A DNA stretch of 64,000 nucleotides from an uncultured Bacteroidia bacterium (GCA_902785575.1 CACZZF010000013.1:52867-116866), one strand, 5' to 3'; positions 5,740-48,819 are shown, counted from the stretch's first letter. The notes: a model not told the origin generated them from the sequence alone. Translations and numbers: made by a program.

Positions 5740-7530
5740 ATGGCAAGAGAAATCAAGTTCTCCCTGGTGTACAGGGACATGTGGCAGAGCTCGGGCAAGT
5801 ACGTCCCCAGGGTCGACCAGCTTTGTGAGGTAGCCCCGGCTATCGTGGATATGGGCTGCTTCGACAGGGTTGAGACCAACGGAGGCGCTTTTGAGCAGGT
5901 CAATCTCCTTTTCGGAGAGAATCCCAATGTGGCGGTCCGTAAGTGGACGGCGCCTTTCCATAAAGCCGGGATCCAGACCCACATGCTTGAGAGGGGATTG
6001 AACGCCCTTAGGATGAATCCAGTCCCGAGAGATGTCAGGGACTTGATGTTCAAGGTCAAGAAAAAGCAAGGCACCGACATCGCCCGTTCTTTCTGCGGTC
6101 TTAATGACCACCGTAACCTCCGCGGCTCGGTTGAGGGCGCGAAGAAGGGCGGTATGATTTCCCAGGTGGCTCTCTCGATCACCAACTCCCCTGTCCACTC
6201 CGTGGCATATTACATGGGTATTGTCGACAAGGTAGTGGAATATGGTTGCGATGAGATTTGCCTCAAGGATATGGCTGGAATCGGCCGTCCTACCTTCCTC
6301 GGTGAGCTTGTCCGGGACATCAAGAAGAAATATCCCCACATCGTGGTTCAGTACCATGGCCATACCGGTCCTGGTTTCTCTCCCGCGTCTATGCTGGAGG
6401 TCGCCCGCGCCGGAGCGGACTATCTGGATGTAGCCGTGGAGCCTCTTTCTTGGGGCAAGGTCCATCCGGATGTGATAACTATCCGTGAGATGATGAAGGC
6501 TGACGGCTTCCTGGTGAAGGATCTCAACATGGACGCCTACATGGAGGTTCGCCGCCTGACCCAGAAGTTCATCGACGACTTCCTCGGATATTGGATCAAC
6601 CCCACGAACTCCCAGATGAGCTCGCTGCTCGTGGGATGTGGCCTGCCCGGGGGAATGATGGGCTCCATGATGGCCGACCTCAAGGGCTTCCAGGGTGCGA
6701 TCAACGCCGCCCAAAGGGCTCACGGCCGTCCGGAGATGAGCCTTGACACCTTGATGGTCAAGCTCTTCCAGGAGGTTGAATACGTGTGGCCCCGTCTGGG
6801 TTACCCGCCTCTCGTGACCCCGTTCAGCCAGTATGTCAAGAACACCGCCTTGATGAACCTCTTCAATATGCTCAACGACAAGCCTCGTTGGACAACTATC
6901 GATAAGGACACCTGGGGCATGATTCTGGGCAACATGGGCCAGCTTCCCGGACCTTTGGCTCCGGAAATCGTAGAATTGGCCAAGGAGAAAGGGCATGAGT
7001 TCTCGACCGGTAACCCGCAGGACAATTATCCCGATGAGCTTCCTAAGTTCCGCGCGATGATGGATGAGAAGGGCTGGGACTACGGCGAGGATGATGAGGA
7101 ACTGTTTGAGCTGGCCATGCATGAGCGCCAGTACCTCGACTACAAGAGCGGAATCGCCAAGGAGCGTTTCAACAAGGAACTTGAGGACTTCAGGGCTAAG
7201 GCCGGAGCACCCATTGTCGTGACTCGTCCTGTAGTTGAGATGCCCAAGTTCGATGTCGAGGATTATACCAGGAAGTATCCGAATGCCGTGCCTGTTCAGG
7301 CTCCTGTCAAGGGCCAGCTTCTCTGGCAGGTCGATGTGGATGACGATTCGGCCGCTCCTGTCGCCGGAACCGAAGTGAAGGCCGGCGTCGGAATGGGCTT
7401 TGTCCAGACATATTACGGTATGGAAGAGCTGGTTCCGGCTATTGACGGAAGAGTCGTCGCTGTTCTCGGCAAACAGGGTGAGAAGGTCGTCAAGGGCGAG
7501 ATTGTCGCGTTTATTGTTCCTGAGAAGTAG
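5740..7530 (+). CDS. Oxaloacetate decarboxylase alpha / pyruvate carboxylase subunit B-like carboxyltransferase with C-terminal biotinyl-like domain
   Basis: 596 aa. Carboxyltransferase (HMGL-like) motifs present: YRDMWQS, ICLKDMAGIG, VVQYHGHTGPG. C-terminal barrel-sandwich hybrid domain (GEKVVKGEIVAFI). Confidence 0.8.
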   Translation: MAREIKFSLVYRDMWQSSGKYVPRVDQLCEVAPAIVDMGCFDRVETNGGAFEQVNLLFGENPNVAVRKWTAPFHKAGIQTHMLERGLNALRMNPVPRDVRDLMFKVKKKQGTDIARSFCGLNDHRNLRGSVEGAKKGGMISQVALSITNSPVHSVAYYMGIVDKVVEYGCDEICLKDMAGIGRPTFLGELVRDIKKKYPHIVVQYHGHTGPGFSPASMLEVARAGADYLDVAVEPLSWGKVHPDVITIREMMKADGFLVKDLNMDAYMEVRRLTQKFIDDFLGYWINPTNSQMSSLLVGCGLPGGMMGSMMADLKGFQGAINAAQRAHGRPEMSLDTLMVKLFQEVEYVWPRLGYPPLVTPFSQYVKNTALMNLFNMLNDKPRWTTIDKDTWGMILGNMGQLPGPLAPEIVELAKEKGHEFSTGNPQDNYPDELPKFRAMMDEKGWDYGEDDEELFELAMHERQYLDYKSGIAKERFNKELEDFRAKAGAPIVVTRPVVEMPKFDVEDYTRKYPNAVPVQAPVKGQLLWQVDVDDDSAAPVAGTEVKAGVGMGFVQTYYGMEELVPAIDGRVVAVLGKQGEKVVKGEIVAFIVPEK

Positions 7531-7533
7531 TTT

Positions 7534-8073
7534 ATGAGAAGAGTTCTCCCGGTTATTGTTCTCGTGTTGTCTGTGGCTTTCATGGCTACAGGCTGCGATT
7601 TCTTCCGTGTTTTGGCCGGGAGGCCGACTTCAAAGGACATTGAGGCGAAGCGGGAGCAGATCCTTCGCTCCGCTCAGGATGACAAGGTTACCGCTCCGTC
7701 TGATATGGTAGCCTCTACAGAGCAGTCGGTCTCGACTGGGCAGGCCGAGGCTAAGCCGGATACTGTCGTTGCCGCGCCAATTCGTCCTGCTGGCGACAAG
7801 GACCCTTTGACAAGCTCAGGGGCCGGGACGGAGAAGAAGCGTTTCTACGTCATAATGGGGGCGTTTTCCAGCAGGGAGAATGCGGAAAAGTATGCCGCTC
7901 GGATAAAAGGCTTTGGTTATGAGCCGGAATTCTTCGGCTTCACTGAGGGCCGTACTGCCGTCGGAATCGGCGGGACTGATGACCAGGAAGAAGCCAAAGC
8001 TTTCATGAAAGATTTGAAAGGGCAGGATTTTTGCCCTGAGGGCGTCTGGATTTTAGACAGGAAAAAGAAATGA
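7534..8073 (+). CDS. SPOR domain lipoprotein
   Basis: Lipobox FMATGC. C-terminal RFYVIMGAFSSRENAEKYAARIKGFGYEPEFF...GIGGTDDQEEAKAFMKDLK matches the SPOR fold pattern. Confidence 0.7.
   Translation: MRRVLPVIVLVLSVAFMATGCDFFRVLAGRPTSKDIEAKREQILRSAQDDKVTAPSDMVASTEQSVSTGQAEAKPDTVVAAPIRPAGDKDPLTSSGAGTEKKRFYVIMGAFSSRENAEKYAARIKGFGYEPEFFGFTEGRTAVGIGGTDDQEEAKAFMKDLKGQDFCPEGVWILDRKKK
7659..7683. repeat. Intragenic copy of the GTCATYCTGAGCG-N-GCGAAGRATC hairpin motif (reverse orientation), in frame in the SPOR protein linker
   Basis: GATCCTTCGCTCCGCTCAGGATGAC is translated as ILRSAQDD. Same motif family as 31540-31620. Confidence 0.6.
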
Positions 8074-21355: not shown

Positions 21356-21781
21356 ATGTGGCAAAGAATCCAGACATTGTATCTCGCGATCGCGACCGCT
21401 TTGGTCGTGACGCTTTTCTTTTGTGTGAAGTCTTTTATGGTGGGACCTGGCGGTGCTCATATTGATGAGGTCAAGTACATCAGTTTCATCCCGTACGCCA
21501 TCCTGCTGGTGTTAACAGCGATTCTTCAGGTCATCGCCTTGTTCACGTTCAATGTGAGAGTGCTTCAGATGCGCACGGCAGTCCTGTCCGCGCTCATCCT
21601 GCTCGGTCTTCAAGGTTGGCTGGTGTTTGATTACATGACGGCTGCGGACGGGGTCCTGTTCCGCTGGACGGCAATTTTACCGCTATTGGCCGCTATTCTT
21701 GATTTCATGGCCGCCAGGCGTATATTGAGGGATCAGTTGCTTGTCGAAAGCATTTCCCACTTGCGCTCCCGAAAACGCTAA
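21356..21781 (+). CDS. DUF4293-like small membrane protein
   Basis: N-terminus MWQRIQTLYLAIA followed by 4 TM helices. ATG at 21356 is preferred to 21302. Confidence 0.6.
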   Translation: MWQRIQTLYLAIATALVVTLFFCVKSFMVGPGGAHIDEVKYISFIPYAILLVLTAILQVIALFTFNVRVLQMRTAVLSALILLGLQGWLVFDYMTAADGVLFRWTAILPLLAAILDFMAARRILRDQLLVESISHLRSRKR

Positions 21782-21795
21782 GTGCCTTGGCCGCG

Positions 21796-21873
21796 GTGCC
21801 GGGTGTCGTCCCGGCTCCCTGCGCTTCGCGCCCTATCCGGGTAAATGGTCGCCGGTGGCGACACCCGGACACC
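21796..21873. repeat. GC-rich hairpin repeat (family with core CTCCCTRCGCTTCGCGCCCTATCCGGGTAAATG), intergenic copy
   Basis: Arms GGTGCCGGGTGTCG (21796-21809) and CGACACCCGGACACC (21859-21873) are complementary. Core 21810-21847 matches 28172-28210 in reverse orientation at 37 of 39 positions. Confidence 0.65.
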
Positions 21874-21886
21874 GGGGACGTTGGAT

Positions 21887-22147
21887 TTACGGGACAGGGT
21901 CGTATCCGCTGCCGCCCCACGGGTTACAGCGCAAGACCCTCCAGACAGTCAGATACAATCCTTTGAACGGTCCCCATTTGCGGAACGCCTCAATGGCGTA
22001 GGTCGAGCAGGAAGGCTCGAAACGGCAAGTCTTGGGAATATAAGGACCGATACACTTGCGGTAGAACCAGATAAGGGCAAGGAAGGGGGCGGACAAGACG
22101 TCCCTCACAACCTTGCGCCAATGAGGTATGCTATAACTGTCTTTCAT
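21887..22147 (-). CDS. yidD: Membrane protein insertion efficiency factor YidD
   Basis: CRFEPSCSTYAIEA...RCNPWGGSGYDPVP signature; located downstream of rnpA. Confidence 0.9.
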   Translation of the reverse strand: MKDSYSIPHWRKVVRDVLSAPFLALIWFYRKCIGPYIPKTCRFEPSCSTYAIEAFRKWGPFKGLYLTVWRVLRCNPWGGSGYDPVP

Positions 22148-27450: not shown

Positions 27451-28512
27451 TTATCTTCTAAGACGGACGTAGATGGAGAGTGGGAGGACTTTGCCGAATT
27501 TGTCCTTGAGGGCAAGTTCTCCGGAATCAAGAGGAGTGTCAGCTTTCAGCCCAAGCGCTTGACGGACAACTGTTTCCCCAAGGACGGCGGAGAACCCGTT
27601 GGAATACAGGTTCAGAACCATGAAGCTGTTTTCGGGAGCGAGGATCTGGCCGACATTGCGCATCATCTCGAACAGGCATTCATCAAGTTTCCATTTCTCC
27701 CCGTCCGGGCCATGCCCATATGCTGGCGGATCAAGGATTATTCCGTTATAAAGATTCCCTCTGCGGGCCTCTCTCTTCGCGAATTTCATGGCGTCCTCCA
27801 CCACCCAGCGTATGCCGTCCAGGCCACTGCGGTCCTGGTTCTCATGCGCCCAGGTCACTACCTGTCGCACAGAATCAAGATGAGTCACATCCGCCCCCGC
27901 GGCCCTTGCGGCAAGAGAAGCCGCACCGGTGTAAGCGAAAAGATTAAGCACCTTCGGTCGCTGATCCATGGAAGCTGCGATCTCCGAAGTGTTCCGGAAT
28001 ATATATTCCCAATTCGCCGCCTGCTCCGGAAATACCCCAACATGCTTGAATGACGTCAGCCCCAGCCGCAGCGAAAACTCCATCCGTTCACACCCGGTGG
28101 GCAGTGAGGTTTTTATCTGGTGTTTGTCAGGAGTGGCGGAACCGCCGGTGGTCGGGAAGTCCCCAGACGGACATTTACCCGGATAGGGCGCGAAGCGTAG
28201 GGAGTCCGGGGACTTCCCGCCACCGGCGATGCCACCGGACAACCTGTACCGGATCCACCACTGATCAGGCATCGCCTTCAGACGGTTCCAAGTGCCGCTA
28301 TCCTCCTTCCCGGCTTTACCGAACCCGGCACCAGGAGTGAATAAAACATGTGCGGCGGAGTCCCATTCCTTCTGGGACAACTCCTTGTTCCACAACGCTT
28401 TAGGCTCCGGCCTTGAAAGAACGAAACCACCGAACCGCTCGAGCTTCATCCCATCTCCGGAATCCAAAAGCTCGTAGTCTTTCCACCTATCTGAGGGAAA
28501 CTCTGTCGCCAT
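27451..28512 (-). CDS. Class I SAM-dependent RNA methyltransferase (RlmI/RlmK-like, PF10672-type) carrying an in-frame repeat insertion
   Basis: YELLDSGDGMKLERFGG N-terminal block. SAM motif VLNLFAYTGAASLAA, and IILDPPAYG. The MATEF start at 28512 is preferred to the ORF-track start at 28593. Confidence 0.8.
   Translation of the reverse strand: MATEFPSDRWKDYELLDSGDGMKLERFGGFVLSRPEPKALWNKELSQKEWDSAAHVLFTPGAGFGKAGKEDSGTWNRLKAMPDQWWIRYRLSGGIAGGGKSPDSLRFAPYPGKCPSGDFPTTGGSATPDKHQIKTSLPTGCERMEFSLRLGLTSFKHVGVFPEQAANWEYIFRNTSEIAASMDQRPKVLNLFAYTGAASLAARAAGADVTHLDSVRQVVTWAHENQDRSGLDGIRWVVEDAMKFAKREARRGNLYNGIILDPPAYGHGPDGEKWKLDECLFEMMRNVGQILAPENSFMVLNLYSNGFSAVLGETVVRQALGLKADTPLDSGELALKDKFGKVLPLSIYVRLRR
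28133..28230. repeat. GC-rich hairpin repeat, intragenic in-frame copy (same core family as 21796-21873)
   Basis: Arms CCGGTGGTCGGGAAGTCCCC (28145-28164) and GGGGACTTCCCGCCACCGG (28208-28226) are complementary apart from one indel. The loop carries the shared core. Confidence 0.65.
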
Positions 28513-29848: not shown

Positions 29849-30736
29849 ATGGATCCGCTAGTGGTGCATTGGAATATGAATCCGGAGATATTCCGGATAG
29901 GTGGCTTTGCCGTCAGGTGGTACGGTCTCCTGTTCGTCTCCGGTTTCATTCTAGGGTATTGGATATTCACAAAGTTCTGTGAGCGAGAGAAGGTAAACAA
30001 TGCTTTCCTCGATCCGCTCCTGTACACCTTGCTTATTGGTACCCTTGTCGGTGCCCGTCTGGGCCATTGCCTTTTCTACGGTTTCAACTATTATTTCGGT
30101 TCCTGGAAGGGTTTCCTGGAGATATTCAAAGTCTGGGAAGGAGGGTTGGCCAGTCACGGTGGTACCATCATGCTGATTTTGTGCATGTGGTGGTTCGCTT
30201 GGAAATTCGGCAAGAAGTACCATATCGACTTTCTCTGGATTCTGGATCACCTCTGTATCGCGGTGGCTTTCGCCGGAGCTTTCATCAGACTGGGAAACCT
30301 TTGTAACTCTGAGATTTACGGTGACGTCACGAATCTCCCCTGGGGCTTTATATTCGAGCGCAGGGGAGAGACGGAGCCGAAGCATCCGACCCAGATTTAC
30401 GAGGCACTGAGCTACCTTATCCTCGGACTGATTCTTGTCTGGCTATATGTCAAGAAACTGGACAAAATGTATAGGGGAACCTTTATTGGATTGTTCTTTA
30501 TCGGTTGCTTCGGGATGAGATTCCTGATCGAATTCATCAAGGAGCCGCAGGAAGCCTTTGAGAATGATATGATCTTGAATATGGGTCAGACCCTGAGCAT
30601 TCCGTTTGTCCTTTTGGGCATAGGTCTGCTTATCTACGCTTTCAAGAAAAAGATTCCGGCTAGGGCGGTGATCCCTGACAACCGGCCGAAGAAAGCCGAG
30701 CCGACCCACTACGCCAAGAGCTTGAACAACAATTAG
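29849..30736 (+). CDS. lgt: Prolipoprotein diacylglyceryl transferase
   Basis: FAVRWYGLLFVSGFILGY and GGLASHGG motifs; HPTQIYEAL signature. Confidence 0.9.
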   Translation: MDPLVVHWNMNPEIFRIGGFAVRWYGLLFVSGFILGYWIFTKFCEREKVNNAFLDPLLYTLLIGTLVGARLGHCLFYGFNYYFGSWKGFLEIFKVWEGGLASHGGTIMLILCMWWFAWKFGKKYHIDFLWILDHLCIAVAFAGAFIRLGNLCNSEIYGDVTNLPWGFIFERRGETEPKHPTQIYEALSYLILGLILVWLYVKKLDKMYRGTFIGLFFIGCFGMRFLIEFIKEPQEAFENDMILNMGQTLSIPFVLLGIGLLIYAFKKKIPARAVIPDNRPKKAEPTHYAKSLNNN

Positions 30737-31513
30737 ATGATCAAAGCTATATTCTTCGACATTGACGGCACCTTGGTGAGTTTCAAGAGCCACAGGATGT
30801 CTGACCGTTTGAAGGACTGCTTGAATGAGCTTCGCGCCCGCGGCGTGAAGCTTTTCATTTCAAGCGGCCGTCACGTATTGGTCATGAATAACCTGGAAGA
30901 CTATCCTTTCGACGGTTACATCGCGATGAACGGGGCATTGACTATCCTTGACGGGAAGACTATCGACAGCCGTCCGCTTCCGAAAGAGATCTCGTTCCAG
31001 GTCGCCAGGATAGCGACGGAGGTCGGTGTCCCTTGCTGGTCTTTCGCTGACTCCATTGTCGGAATCAATTTCGAAAACGGGAAATCAGAAGAGGTCTCCC
31101 GGCAGCTGAATTTCTTCCCGGAGAACTATCTGGATCTTGACGAAGTCGCTCATAGTCACGAGGTTTACCAGTACACGATCTATATGTCGCTCGAGGAGGA
31201 AGCCCGGTATCTGCATCCTGTTCTTTCCGGGGTTGATTACCAGCGTTGGCATCCGTACTTCACCGACATAGTCCCTGGGGGATTGTCCAAGTCCTATGGG
31301 GCGTCTCTTATCCTGGACCGTCTCGGCCTGACTCCAGCGGAGTGCATGGCTTTCGGGGACGGCGGGAATGATATTCCTATCATCGAATATGCCGGGATAG
31401 GTGTAGCGATGGGAAACGCCACGCCTGACGTCAAGGCCGCCGCCGACTTCGTCACCGGTTCCGTCGACGAAGACGGAGTCATCTCCGCCCTCCGCCACTT
31501 CGGCGTCATCTGA
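30737..31513 (+). CDS. Cof-type HAD-IIB family hydrolase
   Basis: FFDIDGTL motif I and GDGGNDIPIIEYAGIGVAMGNA motif IV. Confidence 0.85.
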   Translation: MIKAIFFDIDGTLVSFKSHRMSDRLKDCLNELRARGVKLFISSGRHVLVMNNLEDYPFDGYIAMNGALTILDGKTIDSRPLPKEISFQVARIATEVGVPCWSFADSIVGINFENGKSEEVSRQLNFFPENYLDLDEVAHSHEVYQYTIYMSLEEEARYLHPVLSGVDYQRWHPYFTDIVPGGLSKSYGASLILDRLGLTPAECMAFGDGGNDIPIIEYAGIGVAMGNATPDVKAAADFVTGSVDEDGVISALRHFGVI

Positions 31514-31539
31514 TCCGCTTCAATGTTATCTGATCGGCC

Positions 31540-31611
31540 AACCCTGTCATTCTGAGCGCCCGCAACCCTGTCATTCTTAGCGCCCGCAACCCTGTCATTC
31601 TGAGCGCCCGC
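31540..31611. repeat. Tandem repeat, 3 x 24 bp (AACCCTGTCATTCTGAGCGCCCGC)
   Basis: Units at 31540-31563, 31564-31587 (one G>T change) and 31588-31611. The last unit runs into GAAGAATC, completing the hairpin motif. Confidence 0.9.
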
Positions 31612-31683
31612 GAAGAATCTACTGTCCCTATCGTCCCTAAAACCCGGACGCAAAGAACAAATACAGCCGATATTGATCCCTAC

Positions 31684-31720
31684 GTCCCTCCGGCCGGGAC
31701 GAGGGGAACACGTTTTTCTT
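31684..31720 (+). terminator. Possible terminator of the pgk-lgt-HAD transcription unit
   Basis: GTCCCTC/GAGGG(G)A(A)C hairpin (alternative pairing CGTCCC/GGGACG), followed by CGTTTTTCTT. Confidence 0.35.
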
Positions 31721-31783
31721 ACGGAGGTAATAGCCAGTCAGCCCAGACTTGAGCATAGCACACTACGCCTTTTAAAAGTGATA

Positions 31784-32332
31784 TTATTTCTGGCCTTCAA
31801 TTACTTTAAACATTGTCATCAACATATCTTGTCGTTTTTCTGCCACACTCATATCCGTAGTTCCGCCTAAGTATCTAATTCTAACGTCAGTTATTTTGTG
31901 AGACGACAGTATATCGACATCAGAATCAGATAGCATCAAAGTAGTGTTAAAGAAATGCGTATCCCCGCCCAGAGGATCTCTTTCAGCGCCTATCCCGGTA
32001 TATGATGAATTCAAAACTACGGACTCTCCATTGTCTAGTAAAAATGGTATACCGCTTCCATCTACATATTTTTCTACTTCGGCAAGACCTATGTTCACAG
32101 GTATGCTATAAAGATTATTCACTTTCCGTAAGCAAAGATATAATGTGTTGTGTTTCGTGCCCAAATCCGTGTTGTGGAAACATAGTTGACAGGTTTTTGT
32201 TTCGATTATACGATTACCATTGAATTTATCAGTCTCATTTTTTGCAATTTGGATATTGGCTTTAGTAAAAGAAGCACAGCCACAAATGCTAAGGAGCAGT
32301 GGCAGGATGATAAGTAAAAGTTTTGTCTTCAT
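31784..32332 (-). CDS. Hypothetical lipoprotein (AT-rich orphan gene)
   Basis: Signal peptide plus lipobox MKTKLLLIILPLLLSICGC. No recognisable family. Composition is visibly more AT-rich than the flanks. Confidence 0.5.
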   Translation of the reverse strand: MKTKLLLIILPLLLSICGCASFTKANIQIAKNETDKFNGNRIIETKTCQLCFHNTDLGTKHNTLYLCLRKVNNLYSIPVNIGLAEVEKYVDGSGIPFLLDNGESVVLNSSYTGIGAERDPLGGDTHFFNTTLMLSDSDVDILSSHKITDVRIRYLGGTTDMSVAEKRQDMLMTMFKVIEGQK

Positions 32333-32357
32333 AATGACTGGGGAGCACTAAAACGAT

Positions 32358-43272: not shown

Positions 43273-43716
43273 ATGAAGGGACGTTTGTGGATATTCGTCC
43301 TGGTGGCGGTGGCGCTCGCATGCTGTTCCCGCCCTCCGTCCCGGGAGTTCTTCATTCTCCGGGAGAACGCTGAATATGGCGACACTTATTCTTTTTTCCT
43401 GGATCTGGATGATTCCACCCAGACATATTCTTTGGATTTCTTCACCAGGCTCGAGAGGAATTCATTCAAGGACTTTCCGCCAGAGGATATCATCTTGGAT
43501 CTCAGATGGTTCTCTCCTTCAGACTCTATCTTGACAGACACCGCTTTTGTCAAGATAAATGATCTCGCCGGCTCCGGTTATTACTCCCGGGACTTGATAA
43601 CCCCGTTCAGTGCGGATCTGGATCTCCCGGAGGTTGGAGAGTGGAGGCTCAAGGCCAAGGTTGTCAATGATTCTGAGGAGATCCGCGGATTGGGAATAAT
43701 ACTAAAACACGACTGA
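43273..43716 (+). CDS. gldH: GldH-like lipoprotein
   Basis: Lipobox VALACC, about 147 aa. Position after the holB-PSP1 pair is typical of Bacteroidota gldH. Sequence resemblance was judged from memory only. Confidence 0.5.
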   Translation: MKGRLWIFVLVAVALACCSRPPSREFFILRENAEYGDTYSFFLDLDDSTQTYSLDFFTRLERNSFKDFPPEDIILDLRWFSPSDSILTDTAFVKINDLAGSGYYSRDLITPFSADLDLPEVGEWRLKAKVVNDSEEIRGLGIILKHD

Positions 43717-44714
43717 TGGGTCACGATAAACTTAGGAAATTCGCCGAGAACGAGACTTTCGCCTGCTTGCTGCAGCCGGATGCCTCAAAGGTTTTGGACA
43801 AGACTGGAGATCCTTCTGAGGGCCTGAAGCTCCATGAACATCCGATTAAAGGTCATTGGAATGAGATGATGTTCCACAATGACCAGCCGATTGTTTTGGA
43901 GCTTGGCTGCGGAAAAGGAGAGTACACTATTGATTTGTCCAGAAGAGTCTCGGAAAGGAATTATATCGGTGTGGATATCAAGGGAGCGAGACTCTGGAGA
44001 GGCGCTAAGACGGCCACTGAGGAAGGGATTGGTAATGTGGCGTTTCTGAGGACGAGGATAGAGTTTATCGAGGCGTTTTTCGGGCCTGGGGAGGTGAGTG
44101 AGATTTGGTTGACGTTTTCTGATCCGCAATTGAAGAGCGAGAACAGTCGTCTGACCAGTCCGCTTTTCCTTGAGCGTTATCGCAAGTTCCTCCGGCCCGG
44201 CGGAATCATCCACCTCAAGACCGACAGCCGTTTTCTCCATGAATATTCCAAGGCGGTTGCCCTCGAGAACGGTCTCGACATCCTCGCCGCGACAATTGAT
44301 TTATACGGTGGCAGATGTCCCTCGTGCGACGTCCGCTCCGCGGACCCCACCACCGGCTTTGCCGGCGGTCCCCCCTCTTACGTGGCCGAGGGTGGCCACG
44401 GTCTCCGAGGGACATCTGCCGCCGTAGACAAATCCTACCAAAAAGATTCCACGTTTGCCGGAGCGGACGTTGAACGGGGGGAATACTCCCTCGGAACCGT
44501 ACGTGGGAAGTATTCCCTCGGAGCGGAGTTATTCGAGGTTCAGACGTTCTATGAGCGTATGTTTCTTTCGCAGGGGTACAAGATCACGTATCTTGCGTTC
44601 ACAATCGACCATGACGGACCATATAAGCATCCAGAGACCTTCGATTCTGATTATTGGAGATCGATAGAGGGACCAAGAAGGTTCGTTCACTCACCGGCCT
44701 CTTCCCAAAGGTAA
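43716..44714 (+). CDS. trmB: tRNA (guanine46-N7)-methyltransferase carrying an in-frame repeat insertion
   Basis: LELGCGKGEYT SAM motif, plus IGVDIKG, VAFLRTRIE, WLTFSDPQLK and GIIHLKTD. The ORF is 332 aa, about 70-100 aa longer than characterised TrmB proteins. Confidence 0.85.
   Translation: MGHDKLRKFAENETFACLLQPDASKVLDKTGDPSEGLKLHEHPIKGHWNEMMFHNDQPIVLELGCGKGEYTIDLSRRVSERNYIGVDIKGARLWRGAKTATEEGIGNVAFLRTRIEFIEAFFGPGEVSEIWLTFSDPQLKSENSRLTSPLFLERYRKFLRPGGIIHLKTDSRFLHEYSKAVALENGLDILAATIDLYGGRCPSCDVRSADPTTGFAGGPPSYVAEGGHGLRGTSAAVDKSYQKDSTFAGADVERGEYSLGTVRGKYSLGAELFEVQTFYERMFLSQGYKITYLAFTIDHDGPYKHPETFDSDYWRSIEGPRRFVHSPASSQR
44310..44522. repeat. GC-rich multi-hairpin repeat element inserted in frame in trmB
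   Basis: Perfect inverted repeats at 44310-44324/44406-44420 and 44329-44340/44459-44470. 20-bp palindrome at 44381-44400. Homology to 48650-48695 in reverse orientation. Confidence 0.65.
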
Positions 44715-48457: not shown

Positions 48458-48625
48458 GAGGGCATAGGCCCTGTAAGGACTCCGCTCACTTCGTTCGCTC
48501 CGGCCCCTCCCAACGCTATTTGGGCATTCGCCGTGAGCAAGCTCACGTCTCATACCCAACTATCGTTGGGCCCCTCCCCCTGCCCCTGTCCGGGGGTGGA
48601 CAGGCCTTACAGGGCCTATGCCCTC
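48458..48625. repeat. Large palindromic element 1 (perfect 21-bp terminal inverted repeat with nested hairpins)
   Basis: GAGGGCATAGGCCCTGTAAGG (48458-48478) is the exact reverse complement of 48605-48625. Inner palindromes: CCCAACG/CGTTGGG, GTGAGCAAGCTCAC, CCTGTCC/GGACAGG. Confidence 0.75.
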
Positions 48626-48634
48626 TGTTCGGTG

Positions 48635-48802
48635 TCGAAGGAAGTAGTAATGCCCGGAGGCGTGGCCCCCCTCGGCCACGGGAAGAGGGATGGGGCCCGT
48701 TGGATACGAGTTATCGCATTAGCGATGACGAAGTAGACAATGGGAGGGTACGGAGTGGAGCGAAGCGGAACGAAGCCCTCCGGGCATCACTACTTCCTCC
48801 GA
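48635..48802. repeat. Large palindromic element 2 (26-bp terminal inverted repeat, 24/26 complementary)
   Basis: 48635-48660 pairs with 48777-48802. Inner palindrome CGTGGCCCCCCTCGGCCACG (48661-48680) is 19/20 identical to the trmB insert palindrome. Confidence 0.75.
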
Positions 48803-48819
48803 CATGGCGGAGTAAGTGG

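Follow-up and report, generated by a model that had tools for sequence, protein, structure and literature searches.

A methyltransferase gene from an uncultured Bacteroidia bacterium contains about 50 codons more than its uninterrupted orthologues, and the DNA of this block can fold into a long hairpin. The locus raises the question of whether the block is a part of the enzyme or a DNA repeat that happens to be read in frame. The stretch analyzed, referred to below as the window, comprises 64,000 nt (GCA_902785575.1 CACZZF010000013.1:52867-116866), and contains the following features.

27451..28512, minus strand: host gene, encoding a class I SAM-dependent (RlmI/RlmK-like, PF10672) methyltransferase of 353 aa including the insert (ORF, Pfam, orthologue alignment)
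28078..28239, minus strand: the whole lineage-specific in-frame insert, ~150 nt, residues ~92–145 (DNA alignment with L109, L110, L111 and L112; protein alignment)
28141..28230, minus strand: the family element proper, a T-shaped hairpin of 90 nt (covariance model R1, 81.4 bits, E 3.7e-17; fold)
28172..28204, minus strand: conserved core CTCCCTACGCTTCGCGCCCTATCCGGGTAAATG, with two mini-hairpins, GCG-CTT-CGC and GCCC-TATCC-GGGT (exact pattern match)
28078..28146, minus strand: 3' outer-arm extension plus 57 nt absent from L112 (matches only the window and L121)
21789..21879, plus strand: a second, intergenic family copy, with its core at 21815–21847 (R1 match, 75.1 bits; fold)

The methyltransferase gene is matched by Pfam PF10672, and more weakly by NCBIfam profiles of the RlmK/RlmI type. 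Comparison with orthologues places the start at the ATG at 28512, and the minus-strand ORF ends at 27451. The product contains 353 aa, compared with 300–305 aa in uninterrupted orthologues, and the ~50 extra codons sit between the conserved blocks ...PDQWWIRY and FSLRLGLTSFKHVG. The initial annotation had described an in-frame palindrome of ~150 nt inside this gene, and this was confirmed: the ORF remains open across the whole insert, and the hairpin folds. The predicted junction peptide reads ...GGGKSPDSLRFAPYPGK.... The closest solved structure, 2igt, aligns on either side of the insert, which places it between the N-terminal domain and the Rossmann domain, and 2igt contains no counterpart of the insert itself. 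A shallow alignment limited the AlphaFold2 model, whose quality (mean pLDDT 45) was too low to reveal a loop. The ~50 extra residues are an accessory loop and contain no functional domain.

The lengths of the best 120 homologues fell into two classes, 300–305 aa and 310–364 aa. In the protein alignment, P0010–P0012 are 97–98% identical to the window protein outside the insert, of which they are missing most or all; it is absent from P0011 and P0012 (98% identical outside the insert), and from every orthologue at ≤80% identity. More distant orthologues read WWIRY-(RNY/DGGPK)-FSLRL, with a loop of 3–7 residues at the insert site. The absence from 98% identical orthologues and the short loop in distant ones bear out the earlier proposal that the block is lineage-specific and not a true domain. 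Among 80 metagenomic orthologous loci, retrieved by protein similarity independently of the repeat, the element was present in only five, which are the five closest (≥85% identity), and absent from 75. Two "empty" alleles, L109 and L110, retain 14 nt of the 5' arm, GCCGGTGGCGGGAA, and L111 retains a larger remnant, joining both outer arm parts. Because these empty alleles nest among filled relatives, they are deletion derivatives. Identical inserts were present in independent assemblies of different projects (P0001, L121, L112). In orthologue P0009 (364 aa), the peptide encoded by the 3' arm is tandemly expanded (CSPEDFPATGNTPGSSK-like, x3), showing that the insert is able to grow by local duplication.

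The element may have landed in a recent ancestor of a narrow clade, in the 3–7 residue loop that links the N-terminal domain to the Rossmann fold. Some members would later have lost part or all of it, and the window lineage would have gained extra flanking sequence. The insert is probably neutral for the methyltransferase.

The arms of the methyltransferase hairpin were found where they had been reported, CCGGTGGTCGGGAAGTCCCC at 28145–28164 and GGGGACTTCCCGCCACCGG at 28208–28226. The minus-strand RNA of 28085–28255 (171 nt) has a predicted folding energy of −88.7 kcal/mol, compared with −60.1 ± 4.2 in dinucleotide shuffles (z −6.9; 0 of 200 shuffles as stable). The initial annotation had also noted a core common to the gene and an intergenic copy. 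Indeed, the 33-nt sequence CTCCCTRCGCTTCGCGCCCTATCCGGGTAAATG occurs exactly twice in the window, at 21815–21847 (+) and 28172–28204 (−), with 0 occurrences expected by chance, and the same peptide, SLRFAPYPGK, recurs in a spurious ORF (21729–21998). Aligned without gaps, the two copies match at 77% over 65 nt. The intergenic copy is also a hairpin, and lies between the convergent DUF4293 and yidD genes; no terminator-like T-run was found at 21789–21879. Within the window, model R1 matched only these two copies. The GC content of the element is 0.68–0.75, compared with 0.50 for the window. A search of the window with Rfam 15 gave no match at gathering thresholds, and permissive thresholds gave only generic miRNA-like hairpin matches, far below the cut-offs.

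The insert of ~50 codons is composite, consisting of the 90-nt family element, an outer stem extension and a 57-nt 3' segment. In BLAST searches of all loci compared, the 69-nt stretch 28078–28146 matched only the window and a 98% identical relative, L121, and no match that would indicate its origin was found elsewhere in the compared DNA. A contig of another assembly, L112, is 96–98% identical to the window across 21 kb. Its methyltransferase copy contains compensated changes in the inner stem and lacks the 57 nt found in the window, and the family member in its yidD/DUF4293 spacer is oppositely oriented and has unrelated arms. A segment is also replaced between the two contigs: 30680–32348 in the window (1.7 kb) corresponds to 4945–7833 in L112 (2.9 kb), which encodes a 907-aa Big_2/Peptidase_M64 protein.

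A scan with a 20-nt core (one genome per species) revealed, among the matches listed, at least 108 loci in nearly 30 Bacteroidales assemblies. The repeat family suggested in the initial annotation is thus real, and extends beyond the two window copies. Four of the 108 listed loci were chance matches or lacked a hairpin, and the remainder belong to uncultured rumen and gut Bacteroidales (RUG, RGIG, RUI, UBA and Hadza MAGs, and "Alistipes sp. CAG:435"). The highest numbers of loci in single MAGs were at least 23, at least 14 and at least 12, and one MAG contained at least 25 exact-core copies. The scan gave 0 matches in viral contigs. Typical copies are also present on four contigs binned as Lachnospiraceae or Eggerthellaceae (L019, L071, L084, L091); L019 also bears a Bacteroidales-type OMP_b-brl outer-membrane protein gene, and all four are probably mis-binned Bacteroidales contigs.

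Every copy contains a conserved center, ~CTCCCTGC-GCTTCGCGCCCTATCCGGGT-AAATGGTCG, and two arms that differ between copies and are complementary within a copy. The unit measures ~85–95 bp, with a conserved apical core of ~35 nt, containing two mini-hairpins, on a stem of 24–30 bp. Covariance model R1, built from 17 ungapped copies, gave 115 hits in 98 sources, with diverged cores included. The core is invariant or nearly so in 113 distinct family members, a conservation that is inflated, since it was an exact match to a 20-nt core that brought up most of the copies; unselected neighboring copies still show just 1–4 core changes. Diverged copies keep both mini-hairpins despite the sequence change (CGCG-CTG-CGCG for GCG-CTT-CGC; CCC/GGG retained), which indicates that the tip is a small three-way junction.

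The majority of the copies (76 of 109, ~70%) lie inside long ORFs, defined by an open frame of ≥60 nt past each end of the copy, and do so in both orientations. Four stop-free frames are in use, reading SLRFAPYPGK (29 copies), IYPDRARSAG (21), FTRIGREAQG (14) and ASRPIRVN (12). All 20 host ORFs tested contained Pfam domains, and these often flank the copy on either side. The hosts include an ABC-F ATPase, MatE, MetH, DsbD, Mur ligase, TilS (two copies), GH95, NAD synthase (NadE), peptidase U32, a CitC/CitG fusion and a dehydroquinase-EPSP fusion, and interdomain linkers are the site of many intragenic copies. No split genes were found among the copies, six candidates all being explained by adjacent or antisense ORFs. 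The other 33 of the 109 copies lie between genes, such as those that follow purL or a TSCPD gene. Within hosts, the inserts are presumably translated, in any of the four stop-free frames, as Gly/Pro/Ser/Arg-rich peptides.

The open frame, and the recurrence of SLRFAPYPGK in many proteins, could suggest a genuine protein module, either a linker or a domain. However, the same DNA is read in four frames and both orientations across hosts, is missing from near-identical orthologues, and also occurs in intergenic copies. Together with the identical inserts in independent assemblies (P0001, L121, L112), these observations make a protein module, or an assembly artefact, a barely credible explanation.

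An association with RNA-modification enzymes, suggested in the initial annotation by a second insert in trmB, was not borne out, as hosts are of many kinds (ABC-F, MatE, MetH, DsbD, GH95 and others). Given this diversity, the presence in the window of two RNA-modification enzymes with palindromic inserts is a coincidence. The trmB gene (43716–44714, +; 332 aa) is matched in two stretches by the NCBIfam TrmB profile (224 positions), and carries a different GC-rich palindromic insert at ~44304–44480, with arms at 44304–44324/44406–44426 and 44319–44340/44459–44480. Two further long hairpins are intergenic, at 48458–48625 (24-nt arms, 120-nt loop) and 48633–48804 (28-nt arms, 116-nt loop). The second of these shares with the trmB insert (44381–44400) a 20-nt palindromic center, CGTGGCC(N6)GGCCACG, which points to another repeat family. 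A 24-nt unit, CAACCCTGTCATTCTGAGCGCCCGC, is present in three tandem copies at 31539–31611 of the window, and a related motif, TGTCATCCTGAACGAAGTGAAGGATC (peptide CHPERSEG), occurs in frame directly beside the hairpin copies of several host genes (L022, L037, L061 and L083). This motif may be a third read-through repeat.

Pairing in the stem was examined in the 115-hit alignment, where all four Watson–Crick types occur at each of the 24 long-stem pairs. Of the stem cells, 91.7% are paired, compared with 61% in shuffles and 33–43% with partners slid by 1–3 columns, and G-U accounts for ~2%. In a separate arm-to-arm alignment, 94% of positions were Watson–Crick, with 63 A.C mismatches compared with 34 G.T, and no wobble excess was found in the host mRNA sense. 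Between orthologous copies, 374 stem pairs were compared, of which 56 had changed on both sides with pairing restored and 35 on one side only; the 34 loop (core) columns differed at 3%. Although the helix covaries strongly, it does not show the tolerance of G-U intermediates on the transcribed strand that marks a structured RNA. Because Watson–Crick covariation is accompanied by rare G-U, A.C at least as frequent as G.T, and no mRNA-sense bias, the pattern is the signature of a DNA palindrome kept perfect by arm-to-arm copying, and not of a selected RNA helix. Complementarity of the arms would thus be maintained at the DNA level, through arm-to-arm copying or template switching, without RNA-level selection.

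This pairing pattern also bears on whether the hairpin is a host-functional module under selection, with the core serving as a protein-binding or processing site, either in DNA (for a nucleoid, replication or recombination factor) or in RNA (for an RNase, or in an sRNA-like role). The covariation is of the DNA type: G-U is nearly absent, and neither strand is preferred with respect to host transcription. In addition, there is no Rfam match and no terminator signature, 70% of copies lie within unrelated genes in both orientations, and copies are readily lost from close relatives without replacement. On the other hand, the central 27 nt of the core are identical between copies with unrelated arms, even at orthologous sites (flanks 76–95% identical), the two mini-hairpins are kept though their sequence changes (CGCG-CTG-CGCG variant), and some intergenic copies occupy conserved positions in several species, such as downstream of purL or the TSCPD gene. 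On balance, we consider a host-functional module to be unlikely.

Comparison of orthologous copies revealed that 13 of 43 pairs were flipped, for example at the Mur ligase, ABC-F, GH95 and TilS sites. Where the arms are asymmetric, this asymmetry, including a stem bulge, moves with the core, indicating inversion of the whole element. Orthologous pairs are bimodal: in some, the arms resemble each other as closely as the flanks do, and in others they bear almost no resemblance. When different copies of one genome are compared, their arms are near-random (median identity 0.46–0.50), apart from sub-families in which identical arms, with an identical asymmetry, recur at unrelated loci. The occurrence of identical arms at unrelated loci indicates that arms travel with the core. 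We propose that copies spread together with their arms; elements are also inverted or replaced in situ.

Two other origins for the arms were considered and rejected. Formation of the arms from the target by inverted duplication, which the 14 nt retained in empty alleles might suggest, is contradicted by the presence of the same asymmetric arms at unrelated loci, and by the nesting of the "empty" alleles within the filled clade. Insertion of the core into pre-existing terminator hairpins is contradicted by stems of 24–30 bp, a mostly intragenic location and the absence of a T-run. In L026 (RGIG5088), at ~825–873, the left arm and flank are of the L099/L103 type (DsbD) and the right of the L013/L038 type (GH95); this join at the core arose either when two copies recombined or when the MAG was misassembled at the repeat.

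The copies were not flanked by target-site duplications, the longest shared flank word having a mean of 3.34, compared with 3.30 in mismatched controls. No conserved termini or flanking tag were found among the copies, whose outer hairpin ends differ from copy to copy, and no GTAG or CGTC head is conserved. The family thus lacks the defining features of MITEs and REPs. No transposase or other mobilizing gene was consistently near the copies, and no other transposases were found near clustered copies, where the neighbors were purL, purC, aldose epimerase and an outer-membrane protein. As no clean, recent pair of filled and empty sites was found, it is the distribution of the copies that suggests mobility as a unit.

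A classical MITE, that is, an internally deleted insertion sequence moved by a DDE transposase, would likewise be small, non-coding alone, dispersed in many copies and bounded by inverted-repeat arms. Here, however, the center is conserved and the ends vary between copies, target-site duplication is no higher than the control level, and ~1.2 Mb of flanking DNA contained no parent insertion sequence. A MITE origin is therefore most improbable. The family resembles the in-frame MITEs (ERIC, Nezha, Coxiella QMITEs) in that these are small non-autonomous repeats read through in ORFs (PMC10969869, PMC5896051), and differs in having variable termini and no duplication, instead of conserved terminal inverted repeats with target-site duplications.

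One copy, in L052, has a potential mobilizing gene as its neighbor. A 317-aa Y1_Tnp protein (6681–7634, −; PF01797, 29 bits), with an NHIH HUH motif and the Y motif YVNNNP, is encoded 110 nt from the copy, and the gene also adjoins the orthologous copy in L113/L114. This would be compatible with the family being the cognate REP of a REP-associated tyrosine transposase (RAYT, Y1 HUH), or a REP/REPtron member, as would the report that Bacteroidetes RAYT subclasses have "atypical secondary structures" at their flanks (PMC6006769). By inference, a single-strand HUH enzyme would also be suited to recognizing the tip of a hairpin whose stem is free. We nevertheless regard a REP/RAYT system as very unlikely, because RAYT homologues at 58–70% identity (L115–L120; four other contexts) have no adjoining copy, and at least L117 has its own CTTTAGT...ACTAAAG hairpins; no RAYT homologue was present at any other of the ~190 loci flanking copies; and the copies are mostly intragenic, with no conserved GTAG or CGTC head. 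The single adjacency (L052, orthologous in L113/L114) did not generalize across the loci compared, and an association with RAYTs is doubtful. The RAYT-like Y1_Tnp proteins form a family of 300–320 aa in Rikenellaceae and Bacteroidales MAGs, usually in single copy, and the short hairpins that flank the L117 gene have the form CTTTAGT-N-ACTAAAG.

The family shares with REP/BIME elements the character of GC-rich hairpin repeats thought to act as single-strand DNA structures (PMC3733652, PMC6006769); a RAYT-like gene abuts one copy of the present family. REPs are 20–40 bp in length, extragenic, conserved in stem sequence and marked by a GTAG/CGTC tag (PMC3733652, PMC6006769), none of which holds for the present family, with its units of 85–95 bp and 70% intragenic copies.

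Rickettsia palindromic elements (RPEs) provide a further comparison. RPE families are reported to encode a conserved peptide (Ogata et al. 2000, as summarized in PMC10969869). As described there, RPEs are, like the present repeats, dispersed palindromes of ~100–150 bp with many copies per genome, are unusually frequent in frame in unrelated genes, where the added peptide is compatible with the fold, and also have intergenic copies, with no associated transposase in either case (PMC10969869). In the same description, RPEs are conserved beyond a short core and yield one conserved peptide, whereas in the present family the apical core alone is conserved on a free stem, and four frames in both orientations are used (PMC10969869). 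The intragenic share, at 70%, is also higher than in RPEs. RPEs belong to Alphaproteobacteria and the present family to Bacteroidota, where, unlike in RPEs, in-situ inversion and replacement were seen. By these descriptions, the family is distinct from RPEs and not a member. A 2024 review of MITEs does not mention the phylum, and names RPEs as the extreme of in-frame insertion. The literature searched contained neither the core sequence nor a Bacteroidales family of this kind.

Palindromes of this kind are also known outside bacterial chromosomes. Fungal mitochondria, for example, contain GC clusters and double-hairpin elements, which are mobile, palindromic and rich in GC, and sometimes lie within coding regions. 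The present family likewise consists of GC-rich palindromes in a lower-GC genome that can sit in coding regions; the fungal clusters belong to organellar genomes, and their sequences are unrelated to it. We know of no conserved-tip, free-stem architecture among them. Parvovirus inverted terminal repeats form T-shaped hairpins in flip and flop orientations, and hairpin-loop inversions occur in chloroplast DNA. The likeness to the parvovirus repeats is an analogy only, based on a long stem with two small hairpins, a three-way junction and both orientations; unlike them, the present copies have no viral context, Rep gene or terminal position. In contrast to both the chloroplast inversions and the parvovirus repeats, the whole element is inverted here, with the stem bulge included.

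Taken together, the evidence makes it probable that the insert belongs to a selfish dispersed palindromic DNA repeat of an uncultured rumen and gut Bacteroidales clade, RPE-like in function, and tolerated and presumably translated in protein loops. Its unit would be a perfect Watson–Crick stem of 24–30 bp and nearly arbitrary sequence, bearing the ~35 nt core on top, as a T-shaped three-way junction. Copies would survive chiefly where the host frame stays open, in surface loops and interdomain linkers. That the mobilizer is a single-strand hairpin-recognizing (HUH-type) enzyme is only a guess.

The core remains near-invariant while the arms randomize, even at orthologous sites, which counts against pure selfish drift. 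This hints at a function, either host-level or in enzyme recognition, or at repeated replacement. The conserved tip, free stem and flips fit the mechanism of neither MITEs nor REPs, and point to a further mobilizing or binding activity. We therefore tentatively raise the possibility, somewhat doubtful at present, of an undescribed class of repeat that is recognized by its tip: a T-shaped hairpin with a core of 27–35 nt under purifying selection in nearly 30 Bacteroidales assemblies and a free stem, which flips and is replaced at fixed sites, and is mostly intragenic. If such a class exists, some enzyme or host factor specific for the hairpin tip, such as a single-strand HUH-type enzyme, would be implied, and this clade would have a route for the repeated gain of new protein loops and linkers.

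The repeat has further consequences. It causes length heterogeneity, and errors of annotation and assembly, in MAGs, where one chimeric join at the core was seen. The family would be a second, independent and larger case of in-gene palindromic repeats, in the abundant rumen and gut Bacteroidales. All of its hosts tested are bona fide genes, including the essential MetH, Mur ligase, TilS and ABC-F, and the element family would be a source of new protein loops and linkers.
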